Shown one piece after another: positions 12,827 through 15,406 of a DNA stretch of 21,724 nucleotides (the stretch's first letter is position 1; each line of letters begins with the position of its first letter). The notes beneath the pieces were generated by a model that was not told the origin of the DNA, ran no database searches, and worked only from the letters and a program-made list of their open reading frames with translations. The stretch is taken from the UHGV virus genome UHGV-0132790. The stretch is one strand, 5' to 3'. A program made the translations under genes and the position numbers. This stretch comes from a virus.

Positions 12827-13501
12827 TCATATAGAGGCTGAATCTGATCTTTTTTGTTCACGTCTGGCTTCCACCATTGCAGGCAGAGTGAAGGCGTAGA
12901 CTAAAAACATTTCGGTAAAACTCAGGATCTGGCTTGCCTCAATTGGTGTGAAAACTTCATCTGTATGAACTGCTTTATTGGCATCAATTCGTACAATATG
13001 AGCCCATTCCTTCATCTGTTCAGTGATCAGGCCTTTTTTGTAAATCATCTGAATACGTTGCGACAGCGATTCTTTTCCTGCTTCATCGCCGAGCAGTTTT
13101 TTCGTGGAGATATCGAGGACTCTGCGACAAAGAATAACCACTGTGTCGTACCGCCTCCTCTGTAAATCCTCTTTTGCCTCAACAAAAGTACGGTCTGCAA
13201 CCGGGGGCGTATATTCTGGTGCGGTAATTTTTTTGACCACAGGATAGATCTTGCGGAAACGGTACTGGCTATTTCCTGAAATCAGAATATCGAGGTCTTT
13301 TTTCTGGCTTTCCGCCATGGGACCGTGATAGTGGTCTGATGGGATTTCAACAATAGCAACACCTCCTCGATGACAACTTCTGCATACAAAAGCGACGTTA
13401 AAAAAAGGTGTTTTTTCAATTTGTTTTTCGGCAAATGCCTCAATAACAGCTCGCTCTTTTAAACAGTGCGGGCATGTGATATCAAAGGAGACTAAACCCA
13501 T
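12827..13501 (-). CDS. Hypothetical protein (about 224 aa): N-terminal zinc ribbon (CPHC...CRSC) and a C-terminal region resembling DUF4145; candidate abortive-infection or defence protein
   Basis: Minus-strand ORF inside a plus-strand operon. ATG at 13501 (MGLVSFDITCPHC...) with GAGGAA upstream. The C-terminus KESLSQRIQMIYKKGLITEQMKEWAHIVRIDANKAVHTDEVFTPIEASQIL recalls the DUF4145 pattern from memory. Confidence 0.55.
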   Translation of the reverse strand: MGLVSFDITCPHCLKERAVIEAFAEKQIEKTPFFNVAFVCRSCHRGGVAIVEIPSDHYHGPMAESQKKDLDILISGNSQYRFRKIYPVVKKITAPEYTPPVADRTFVEAKEDLQRRRYDTVVILCRRVLDISTKKLLGDEAGKESLSQRIQMIYKKGLITEQMKEWAHIVRIDANKAVHTDEVFTPIEASQILSFTEMFLVYAFTLPAMVEARREQKRSDSASI

Positions 13502-13745
13502 GGATATTCCTCGCGAAATTAAAGAAATTAACGAAATCATTGAGGTTACTGATCGCCCCGAGTTTACCCTCATGCGTCGTTATGAAACAGGAACCGACGA
13601 ACAAAAATACATCATGGTTACAGCATTGGCTGTGATGGCGATAGAAAGGGAGCGAAGGGAAAAGGACGTAATGGTTATTCCTGAGAGAAATGATTCACCG
13701 GATTTGAGATGGCAGGAGCCGGAGTGGGATGTGGTAATCCGGTGA
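13500..13745 (+). CDS. Small hypothetical protein (81 aa)
   Basis: ATG at 13500 with AAGGAG 9 nt upstream. Its start codon shares the CATG at 13499-13502 with the divergent 12827-13501 gene. Confidence 0.35.
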   Translation: MDIPREIKEINEIIEVTDRPEFTLMRRYETGTDEQKYIMVTALAVMAIERERREKDVMVIPERNDSPDLRWQEPEWDVVIR

Positions 13746-13792
13746 TTGATATTTCTCTGGGGTAAAGCGCCGCCAGAATGACGGCGCGGTGG

Positions 13793-14098
13793 TTAAGCAT
13801 GAGGCGAAATTTCTGCCGGGCGGTATTTTGTTGAGAGATGAGATACGTCAACTTCTCTTTCCGCTTTTTCGAGGCTCCATGCCGTCTGGAGACGAATCCA
13901 TGAAGACGGAGTTCCACCCAGGACAGCAGCGAGACGAACAGCCATTTCAGGAGATATTGTCGCATTACCTGAAACCAGTCGCTGAACAGTGGAAGGCGCG
14001 ACATCAAGCGCTCTTGCCAGTTCCCTGATTCCAATATTCTGATCTTCCAGAATATCAGCAATAATTTCTCCGGGATGAGGGGGGTTAAACATCGCCAT
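13793..14098 (-). CDS. higA: HigA-type antitoxin (XRE-family HTH)
   Basis: 101-aa MAMFNPPHPGEIIADILEDQNIGIRELARALDVAPSTVQRLVSGNATISPEMAVRLAAVLGGTPSSWIRLQTAW... is typical of HigA/VapI antidote proteins. Lies downstream of the toxin with a 1-nt TAATG overlap. Confidence 0.8.
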   Translation of the reverse strand: MAMFNPPHPGEIIADILEDQNIGIRELARALDVAPSTVQRLVSGNATISPEMAVRLAAVLGGTPSSWIRLQTAWSLEKAEREVDVSHLSTKYRPAEISPHA

Positions 14099-14376
14099 TA
14101 GTGGTAATCCTCGTAGTTAAGAATATAAGCATCGCCGTTCCGAAACTCGAATGTGATTCTCCAGTTACCGGAGACGGTGACAGACCATGTATCGGATCTG
14201 TCCCCCTGCAACTGGTGCAGCCTGTACCCGGCAAGGTTAATATCATCAATGATTTCAGCTTGATCTATTACCTGAAGGCGCGTTCTCAGGCGTTTAACGT
14301 GATTGGGATTTATGCCTGATGCATTTCCTGTTTCAAAGAAACGTTGAAGTCCTTTGTGTTTCCAGCTTTTTATCAT
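14098..14376 (-). CDS. higB: HigB-type toxin (RelE/ParE superfamily)
   Basis: 92-aa MIKSWKHKGLQRFFETGNASGINPNHVKRLRTRLQVIDQAEIIDDINLAGYRLHQLQGDRSDTWSVTVSGNWRITFEFRNGDAYILNYEDYH. ATG at 14376 with AGGAAA upstream. Toxin-first gene order is characteristic of higBA. Confidence 0.8.
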   Translation of the reverse strand: MIKSWKHKGLQRFFETGNASGINPNHVKRLRTRLQVIDQAEIIDDINLAGYRLHQLQGDRSDTWSVTVSGNWRITFEFRNGDAYILNYEDYH

Positions 14377-14713
14377 GCTTGTTTCCTGTTGCGTTACGCG
14401 AATCATTATAGCGACTGTTGTGTAATGCGCAACGGTTGTTTGACAAAAATAGGTATCCGGGATTATATTCACCGCACGCCAGCAAAATCTGGCGTCGGGA
14501 TTGGCGTCCTGGATAGAGACCGCGACAGATACACGCCGCGAGCGTGTTTTTTATTGTCGTATGCACGCGCACATCTGAATTATGGTGGGCTGTGTGGGGG
14601 CGGAGAGATCCGCGCCGGTCGGTTTCCCGGTTACGCCAACCCTGCACAGTTCACCACCAGACGATTGGCGTCGTCGGTGGTGAGTTATTAAGAAACCACT
14701 CGAGGGCGTCATT

Positions 14714-15406
14714 ATGACAACTCAAATCTCTGTTGAAACTCTCTCCCCGATCACCCATAACCAGATTCCTGTTATTACCACCGAACTTTTGGCGCAGTTG
14801 TACGGTGCTGAAGTTAAGAACATTCAAAATAACTACGCCAGAAATGCTGAGCGCTTTATTGAAGGAAAGCATTTTTTCAAAGTGGCTGGCGATGCCCTGA
14901 AAAATTTGCGGGTAGCTTTAAACTACTCACAAAATTTGCAACCATCTTTAAGAGGGTTACAAATTTCCCCGAAAGCCCGCTCCCTCATCCTCTGGACAGA
15001 ACGAGGCGCAGCCCGTCACGCCAAAATGCTAGAAACCGATCAGGCGTGGGAAGTGTTCGAAAAACTGGAAGACTGCTATTTCAGCCAGGGAAAAACAGCA
15101 CCAACCGAACAGCAGCCGCAGATTCAGCCACAATTCACAGCCGAGGAAATCATCCTCCTTTGCTACATGCAACTCTGGATGGAAAAAGCCCAGGACCTTA
15201 GCAAGCAGCTGTACCCCATAATGAAAGAGCTGAACTCCTCATACACGAACAAGCTGTATGACATTGCGTTTGAGACTATCTACATGGTGACGAAGAACAG
15301 AGACGCGCTACTAAGGGAGGTAACACGTCTCGACATGTCAAGTTCCGTTATCCAGCGGGCCATGCCAATGCTGAAAAGCCTGCGGGCAAGACAATTTGAA
15401 TTCTGA
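14714..15406 (+). CDS. ORF6N-domain phage protein (Roi or antirepressor-like DNA-binding protein)
   Basis: N-terminal VITTELLAQLYGAEVKNIQNNYARNAERFIEGKHFFKV resembles the ORF6N domain consensus. 230 aa. Confidence 0.6.
   Translation: MTTQISVETLSPITHNQIPVITTELLAQLYGAEVKNIQNNYARNAERFIEGKHFFKVAGDALKNLRVALNYSQNLQPSLRGLQISPKARSLILWTERGAARHAKMLETDQAWEVFEKLEDCYFSQGKTAPTEQQPQIQPQFTAEEIILLCYMQLWMEKAQDLSKQLYPIMKELNSSYTNKLYDIAFETIYMVTKNRDALLREVTRLDMSSSVIQRAMPMLKSLRARQFEF

Follow-up and report, generated by a model that had tools for sequence, protein, structure and literature searches.

Two divergent genes share the bases of their start codons

The virus genome UHGV-0132790, a stretch of 21,724 nucleotides (nt) that is referred to here in its whole length as the window, corresponds to a lambdoid (Stx-type) prophage in which two genes of opposite orientation start from the same four bases. 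The minus-strand gene (positions 12827-13501) codes for a protein of 224 amino acids (aa), composed of an N-terminal zinc ribbon with four cysteines (Cys4), a linker and a C-terminal DUF4145/HEPN RNase domain, and is predicted to be similar to RAZR (formerly PD-T7-4), a zinc-finger RNase that is activated by rings. The plus-strand gene (13500-13745), identified from the list of open reading frames (ORFs), by its match to phrog_8371 and by selection analysis, codes for a small protein of 81 aa. In the sequence, the plus-strand ATG occupies positions 13500-13502 and the minus-strand ATG positions 13501-13499, both within the palindromic CATG at 13499-13502, which results in a 2-nt overlap of the two coding sequences that was present in every homologous pair examined. 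A shared CATG start had been proposed for both genes in a previous reading of the DNA made from its letters alone (hereafter the sequence-only reading); coordinates and ORFs proved to be as described there, and the same overlap was recovered in at least 34 distinct homologous pairs.

Each gene is preceded by its own Shine-Dalgarno (SD) sequence. That of the small gene, AAGGAG (13485-13490, plus strand), is located 9 nt 5′ of its ATG within codons 4-6 of the DUF4145 gene, with a calculated anti-SD duplex of −8.7 kcal/mol. The SD of the DUF4145 gene, which reads TTCCTC on the plus strand and GAGGAA on the minus strand (13507-13512), is located 5 nt 5′ of the minus-strand ATG within codons 3-5 of the small gene (anti-SD duplex of −5.9 kcal/mol), and its GGA core is provided by the conserved TCC/CCT of small-gene codons 3-4. 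Given these positions relative to both starts, each SD lies inside the first codons of the other gene. Both SD sequences had been pointed out in the sequence-only reading, and they are supported beyond the window: among 20 diverse loci, an SD-like duplex of −4 kcal/mol or better was found at 19 DUF4145 starts and at 14 small-ORF starts, compared to 20% of background ATGs.

The window contains 97 CATG sites. Only that at 13499-13502 combines, for both of its ATGs, an ORF of at least 50 aa with an anti-SD duplex of −4 kcal/mol or better. The start overlap is more than chance, as it is conserved across the homologous pairs. In the RefSeq/PGAP annotation of a 100%-identical E. coli prophage both genes are present with the same 2-nt overlap; although the genes were thus already annotated, no published description of this gene arrangement was found in our literature search. 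Alternative starts were also considered, namely GTG 13476 for the small gene (89 aa) and ATG 13573 (248 aa) and ATG 13540 on the minus strand for the DUF4145 gene. All of them were discarded, since the corresponding extensions and starts are not conserved in relatives, whereas the CATG starts are.

The minus-strand gene codes for a predicted RAZR-like protein

The 224-aa protein matched Pfam DUF4145 (E=3.9e-9) and phrog_1305. DUF4145 belongs to the HEPN RNase superfamily (PMC3710099). An AlphaFold2 (AF2) model of the protein, with a predicted local distance difference test (pLDDT) score of 89.6, consists of an N-terminal beta zinc ribbon, with a four-strand unit at residues 4-52, and a C-terminal helical domain. 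The zinc-finger domain (ZFD; residues 1-56, positions 13334-13501, minus strand) is the hypervariable part of the gene. Its cysteines Cys10, Cys13, Cys40 and Cys43 are nevertheless invariant in 46 homologs, so that the N-terminal Cys4 which characterizes RAZR is present, and its profile gave a weak match to RPB9-type zinc ribbons, the same comparison that was made for the zinc finger of RAZR (PMC13017515). The HEPN (DUF4145) domain comprises residues 100-224 (12830-13204, minus strand) and contains a putative catalytic motif, R171-x3-N175-x3-H179 (12965-12991, minus strand), assigned by invariance and by alignment to RAZR. The three residues are invariant in the 46 aligned homologs, and R171 and H179 align, with equal spacing, with R146 and H154 in the ICRIVGNQAVH stretch of RAZR, where the counterpart Arg and His are essential (PMC13017515). 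A C-terminal DUF4145/HEPN domain with putative catalytic Arg and His, another mark of RAZR membership, is therefore also found. Between divergent copies, the ratio of nonsynonymous to synonymous substitutions (dN/dS, Nei-Gojobori) of the DUF4145 gene was 0.04-0.22.

Direct comparisons with RAZR gave matches of modest significance. The PADLOC hidden Markov model (HMM) for PD-T7-4 recognized the window protein at E=0.0022 and 19 of the 46 family members, the best of them at E=2.8e-7. HHalign against a canonical RAZR homolog gave a probability of 71.5% and E=3.6e-5 over the linker and HEPN only, with the ZFD unaligned. In the PDB, the family profile matched the RAZR ring (9y9c, E=0.19) in an alignment that includes the catalytic motif, and phmmer with the DUF4145 protein gave no PDB match. 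Because these sequence links are real but weak, we classify the 224-aa protein as a distant RAZR-like protein and not as RAZR. The guess of the sequence-only reading that this is a defence gene is in line with the DUF4145/HEPN and Cys4 architecture and with the distant relationship to PD-T7-4, which together point to such a function.

The N-terminal part of the gene evolves differently from the rest. In loci whose small proteins are 93-100% identical, the HEPN domains are 74-92% identical, while the ZFDs are mostly 33-47% identical (70-80% in four pairs) and the linkers 18-57%. Divergence of the small gene tracks that of the HEPN domain (rho 0.81-0.83) and not that of ZFD plus linker (0.15-0.32). 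The sequences thus suggest a hypervariable ZFD segment inside a block that is inherited together, in agreement with the RAZR paper, where the zinc-finger domain sets specificity and is the most variable part of the protein (PMC13017515). Exchange or diversification of the zinc-finger/linker segment is independent of the flanking HEPN segment and of the small gene, mirroring the specificity role of the RAZR ZFD. We rejected as over-reading the use of the covariation between small gene and HEPN as proof of co-evolution, because the neighbouring ninB also covaries with the small gene.

The small gene codes for a conserved three-helix protein

The small protein has a three-helix core (residues 5-57) with the motif DRPEFTLM.RYET...QK...ALIG.LIE.DR, followed by a disordered, non-conserved tail. 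Its AF2 model shows a confident three-helix core, with pLDDT above 90 for residues 11-50. The match to phrog_8371, a family without an assigned function, covers the full length, no Pfam family was matched, and a fold search was uninformative; neither a helix-turn-helix (HTH) nor a nucleotidyltransferase fold was recognized in the model or by that search. In the first single-sequence search only near-identical E. coli matches were obtained, which gave the impression of an orphan ORF, an impression that was overturned by pattern-based retrieval of loci and by profile searches. The family nevertheless is small: it has 6 representatives among 1.84 billion, and 87 clusters were reached by profile search.

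In order to describe selection on the small ORF, 16 copies diverging to about 45% aa identity were aligned. Mean entropy at codon positions 1, 2 and 3 was 0.72, 0.62 and 1.10, respectively, and in columns of invariant residues the first two codon positions were fixed with the third varying freely. Between divergent copies dN/dS (Nei-Gojobori) was 0.05-0.45, with a mean proportion of nonsynonymous differences (pN) of 0.29 and of synonymous differences (pS) of 0.64, and the ORF was intact in every copy. Taken with the values obtained for the DUF4145 gene, these patterns indicate that both genes are real and under purifying selection. The sequence-only reading had left the 81-aa ORF open to dismissal should it lack conservation in related prophages; it is clearly conserved in them, and is a genuine partner.

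Two synonymous sites were invariant in about 30 divergent copies, the TTT of Phe22 (28 of 28; 13563-13565) and the CAA of Gln35 (29 of 29; 13602-13604), which may reflect a signal at the DNA or RNA level within the coding sequence, perhaps an opposite-strand promoter. These two sites could be taken to mean that the ORF is not translated at all and that 13502-13745 owes its conservation solely to being the promoter and 5′ leader of the DUF4145 gene, as could the frequent omission of the ORF by gene callers and the fact that the DUF4145 promoter must fall in this stretch in loci where ninB follows directly. We regard this explanation as highly improbable, since it accounts neither for an ORF that is intact in all copies, with free third positions at invariant residues and a pN well below pS, nor for the confident three-helix model; moreover, the ORF keeps an SD and start of its own where DUF4145 is absent.

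Some further features of the copies were recorded. In some E. coli variants (L003, L004) a 1-nt deletion near the 3′ end of the small ORF (around 13718 in the window) alters the C-terminal tail, which in L004 is lengthened to give a 93-aa protein; the model shows this tail as disordered, and copies from outside E. coli do not conserve it, so that it is probably dispensable. Annotation of the pair is inconsistent: the small ORF has been missed by gene callers in several genomes (L070, L073, L077, L086), and in E. coli ED1a protein P0002 it is over-extended to 116 aa. The DUF4145 gene itself is unannotated in the record of Klebsiella phage 2b LV-2017 (L124). The label "LygF" that appears in some phage records derives from the naming of Salmonella Sdf-region genes and was set aside as apparently unrelated to the pair, the labelled gene not having been checked.

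The pair is conserved in prophages of Enterobacterales and Burkholderiales

An identical cCATG start overlap was found in all of the at least 34 distinct homologous pairs, which belong to prophages of Enterobacterales and Burkholderiales, and it was unchanged down to about 36% identity of the DUF4145 protein (Paraburkholderia). Fifteen distant loci retrieved via the small protein, on IMG/VR contigs and an Enterobacter chromosome, carry DUF4145 genes whose products are 42-52% identical, all of them with the same cCATG. Starting from DUF4145 homologs, the same overlap together with a homologous small ORF was recovered in E. coli (a 71% allele), Proteus, Yersinia, Arsenophonus, Serratia and Paraburkholderia, and the small ORF was present even in loci where gene callers had missed it. 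When the small-protein profile alone was used, 36 loci (27 distinct pairs) were retrieved, including an abundant K. pneumoniae cluster and Alcaligenes faecalis, and all 36 showed a head-to-head ORF of the DUF4145 family at the CATG (HMM E-values from 1e-64 to 1e-111).

In Klebsiella the pair is positioned after lysis-type genes and not in the slot between replication genes and ninB; its presence in this different prophage region indicates that it moves as a unit. The pair was also found in cultured phages, namely PhiR5_2 of E. coli K-12 and the Shigella phages 75/02 Stx and POCJ13. Over 34 loci with distinct small-ORF sequences, 91.5% of the flanking ORF bases were on the strand of the small gene. 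Judged from these comparisons, the two genes constitute a conserved two-gene head-to-head cassette of temperate phages that had not been described as a pair.

The two genes also occur apart

One common group of E. coli prophages (L002, L003, L021-L028) has the small gene but no DUF4145. Their homology to the window begins at 13504, just past the CATG, and their copies have a different five-residue N-terminus, a GAGG SD of their own and a GTG start. Since homology with these contexts begins at that position, the joint at the CATG is a recombination point. In L002 the slot of DUF4145 (2182-2984) is filled by a 166-aa plus-strand protein with no Pfam match, which may be another cargo or defence gene, and then by a 300-nt gap. 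As for DUF4145 genes without the partner, no head-to-head small gene was found at canonical RAZR loci, and it was also missing from a 212-aa DUF4145 clade sited between lysis and terminase genes, from Burkholderia phage phi644-2 and from a 34% outlier, which implies that the RNase does not generally need it. The 33.5%-identical DUF4145 gene of phi644-2 (L123, around 2480) starts at a CATG whose opposite frame closes after 13 codons; this type of start alone is thus no evidence of a partner.

Mosaicism with a joint exactly at the CATG, either gene occurring without the other, and ZFD alleles swapped beside an unchanged small gene are all compatible with merely coincidental neighbours, that is, an independent small phage gene with an unrelated job and a DUF4145 moron repeatedly placed beside it at a recombination joint. 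The CATG would then be a frozen accident, one that the placement of each SD within the opposite gene makes difficult to reverse. However, coincidence fits poorly with the 36 of 36 loci that were retrieved through the small protein and carry a head-to-head DUF4145 gene, with an overlap that is unchanged to about 36% identity, with the joint presence of the pair in another region of Klebsiella prophages and in Burkholderiales, and with a small-protein family almost absent elsewhere among the 1.84 billion representatives. We consider it an unlikely explanation of the pair.

Gene geometry favours antagonistic expression

The small gene is sited in the long early-right (PR-type) operon and is co-oriented with it, and the DUF4145 gene is the one that runs against it. 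A stringent promoter scan of the minus strand detected none for the DUF4145 gene. With a position weight matrix (PWM), a weak candidate was found within the small-ORF core (GTTTCA, 16-nt spacer, TAAACT; 13561-13588, minus strand), whose −10 element ends 59 nt before the ATG and which recurs at equal distance in 6 loci. A second weak candidate, TTGATC-16-TATCGT (75 nt), recurs in other loci; neither model fits all loci. As no promoter fits between the genes, each promoter has to be inside or beyond the other gene, and in loci where ninB lies directly 3′ of the small gene, the DUF4145 promoter has to be within the small ORF or ninB.

The sequence-only reading had proposed that a shared 40-bp control region could couple expression of both genes. 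Neither element of this proposal was borne out. The 28-bp stretch 13485-13512 consists solely of the two interdigitated ribosome-binding sites (RBS), leaving no room for a shared promoter, and the geometry, with the small gene going along with the operon and the RNase gene against it, argues for antagonism. If both genes use their SDs, both mRNAs contain 13485-13512, the minimum stretch common to the two, and would be perfectly complementary over at least 28 nt that include both SDs and both starts, as deduced from the coordinates; by the same deduction, operon transcription through the small gene yields an RNA that is antisense to the DUF4145 gene over its whole length. Opposed orientation and mRNAs that are antisense across both SDs and starts predict antagonism or mutual exclusion, and not co-expression.

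This geometry also bears on the possibility that the small protein contributes to the defence in the lysogen as an antitoxin-like brake, an adaptor or a regulator made alongside the RNase, with each promoter buried in the other gene and the RNA overlap only tuning the product ratio. The association of the genes is tight and ancient, the small gene tracks the HEPN domain, small neutralizing partners are common with HEPN toxins (PMC3710099), and weak plus-strand promoter-like sites exist inside the DUF4145 gene in some loci; these sites, however, are not positionally conserved, and in all cases the small gene forms part of the lytic operon and shares its orientation. Toxin-antitoxin (TA) pairs, moreover, are normally co-directional operons and not divergent overlapping genes, RAZR needs no partner and is non-toxic alone, the small protein lacks an HTH or nucleotidyltransferase fold, and the small gene persists where the RNase is missing. 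Thus we find a role as defence component doubtful.

Neighbouring genes and elements of the prophage

On the minus strand, the prophage of the window encodes a RecT-family annealing protein, an ExoVIII-like exonuclease, the antiterminator N and a CI-like repressor. Its plus-strand early-right operon encodes an O-like protein, a DnaC-like loader, DUF1627 and DUF977, after which follow the DUF4145 gene (minus), the small ORF (plus), higBA (minus), an ORF6N antirepressor gene, ninB and ninE.

In the E. coli contexts the small ORF always faces a convergent TA pair of varying identity: higBA in the window (13793-14376, minus strand), a TumE toxin with an HTH protein of the HVO_A0114 type in L002 (3293-3941), and RelE/ParE-type or unannotated genes with an HTH or antitoxin-like gene in L003 (3300-4047) and L004 (3997-4680). 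The TA position looks like a second swap-in slot adjoining the cassette. Between the stops of the small ORF and higA, a hairpin GCGCCG-(9 nt)-CGGCGC (13767-13787) is conserved along with the small-ORF module in each of the four E. coli contexts. A T-run is missing on the plus strand and amounts to no more than TTT on the minus strand; the hairpin could act as a weak terminator in both directions or contribute to RNA stability. Within the DUF4145 gene, at 13078-13096 on the plus strand, an intrinsic-terminator-like stem is followed by TTTTTT; if it were functional, expression of the small ORF would depend on N antitermination. Finally, the plus strand has a near-consensus sigma-70-type site (TTGACA, 18-nt spacer, TATATT; 11/12) at 14440-14469, immediately upstream of where higB is annotated to start on the opposite strand; the site is directed at the ORF6N antirepressor gene at 14714.

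A possible switch between RNase and inhibitor

RAZR is an abortive-infection RNase encoded by a single gene and non-toxic alone, which becomes active by forming a 24-mer that surrounds ring-shaped phage proteins, for instance the T7 portal or SECphi27 Gp77 (PMC13017515). The explanation that we favour for the locus, with a probability of about one in two, is that of a head-to-head cassette with mutually exclusive expression of the RNase gene and the small gene, whose small protein would disarm the RNase during the lytic growth of the prophage itself. In the lysogen, with the lytic operon under repression, RNase expression would be driven by a promoter lying within the small gene or past it, and the enzyme would guard the cell against superinfecting phages. 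Upon induction, transcription of the operon would collide and pair with the RNase mRNA, shutting down RNase expression, and would at the same time supply the small protein. In what is the most speculative step, this protein would neutralize the RNase already present, so that the phage-producing cell would not be driven to suicide by the ring-forming proteins of the prophage (portal, RecT-type annealing protein).

The stronger form of this proposal is more tentative, and we think it rather less probable than its alternatives taken together. It holds that the three-helix protein would be a dedicated inhibitor of RAZR-type RNases ("anti-RAZR") acting only in lytic growth, that the overlap would be an RNA toggle giving either RNase (lysogen) or inhibitor (induced) and never both, and that RNase-less copies of the L002 type might serve as stand-alone counter-defence against RAZR-like lysogens. 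A self-immunity role of the small protein, to which analogy points, is likewise put forward with reserve, the odds being against it.

Several observations weigh against a mutually exclusive cassette that protects the prophage from its own RNase. The homology of the window protein to RAZR is weak (PD-T7-4 E=0.0022 for this protein alone, PDB profile E=0.19), and RAZR is non-toxic even when overproduced and works as a single gene (PMC13017515). Canonical RAZR loci, the 212-aa clade, phi644-2 and the 34% outlier do without the small gene, which for its part persists without DUF4145 in E. coli prophages. Covariation of the small gene with HEPN is only modestly stronger than with ninB (0.81 vs. 0.64) and could reflect a shared backbone history. 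Finally, neither the stringent nor the PWM scan located a promoter for the DUF4145 gene with confidence, and the fold search with the small protein gave no hint of its function.

Comparison with known systems

With RAZR, the 224-aa protein shares the N-terminal Cys4 zinc ribbon, a conserved linker and the C-terminal DUF4145/HEPN domain with R-x7-H at equal spacing; both proteins are about 210-225 aa long and both are found on mobile elements. However, the similarity is distant (HHalign E=3.6e-5, ZFD unaligned). RAZR, in addition, is a single-gene system with no head-to-head small gene, whereas the clade of the window has a start-overlapping partner in all copies examined. Pairing of a HEPN RNase with a small neighbouring gene is also seen in the HEPN-MNT type II TA systems (PMC3710099), from which the present pair differs in that the partner is a three-helix bundle with no Pfam match and not a nucleotidyltransferase, and in that the genes are divergent and overlapping and do not form an operon.

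The closest parallel for the role suggested here is offered by T4. Dmd, a phage protein of about 60 aa, is produced early in lytic growth and directly inhibits a HEPN RNase that would abort infection, a role which, by analogy, matches the one proposed for the small protein. In our case, however, the candidate inhibitor and the RNase would be encoded by the same phage in overlapping head-to-head genes, and no similarity in sequence or fold was found between the small protein and Dmd. Lambda ren reportedly protects the phage from the Rex abortive-infection system of its own prophage, a finding said to go back to Toothman and Herskowitz in 1980. Like the small gene, ren is said to be a small gene of the early-right operon in the same slot between replication genes and ninB, with the exclusion system on the opposite strand; the proteins are unrelated, however, and rexAB is reportedly found in the immunity region, kilobases from ren and with no overlap between them.

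As to the RNA, antisense control through overlapping 5′ ends is exemplified by RNA-IN/RNA-OUT of IS10. Excludons are divergent neighbours with overlapping transcripts, in which transcriptional interference and RNase III-sensitive duplexes lead to mutually exclusive expression (ExcludonFinder, PMC12288877). The pair resembles them as divergent neighbours whose transcripts overlap, here deduced from coordinates; whereas those described overlap in untranslated regions, in our pair the coding sequences overlap by 2 nt and each RBS is built from codons of the other gene.

Significance of the cassette

What appears to be new is a RAZR-like defence gene with a conserved, start-overlapping divergent partner. 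RAZR was characterized in 2026 as a single-protein immune sensor, and no partner, regulator or phage inhibitor of it was described in the literature that we searched. Independently of its function, the locus shows divergent genes that share start-codon bases in an unusually clear form and with deep conservation, the RBS of each being encoded in the other. To our knowledge, the divergent kind is the rarest among overlaps of bacterial genes and is often written off as an annotation error; the overlap described here is backed by selection analysis on both genes. As the pair occurs in cultured phages, direct testing is possible. The cassette is a candidate answer to the question of how a prophage carries a ring-sensing abortive-infection RNase without killing itself on induction, and its small protein may be the first anti-RAZR protein.

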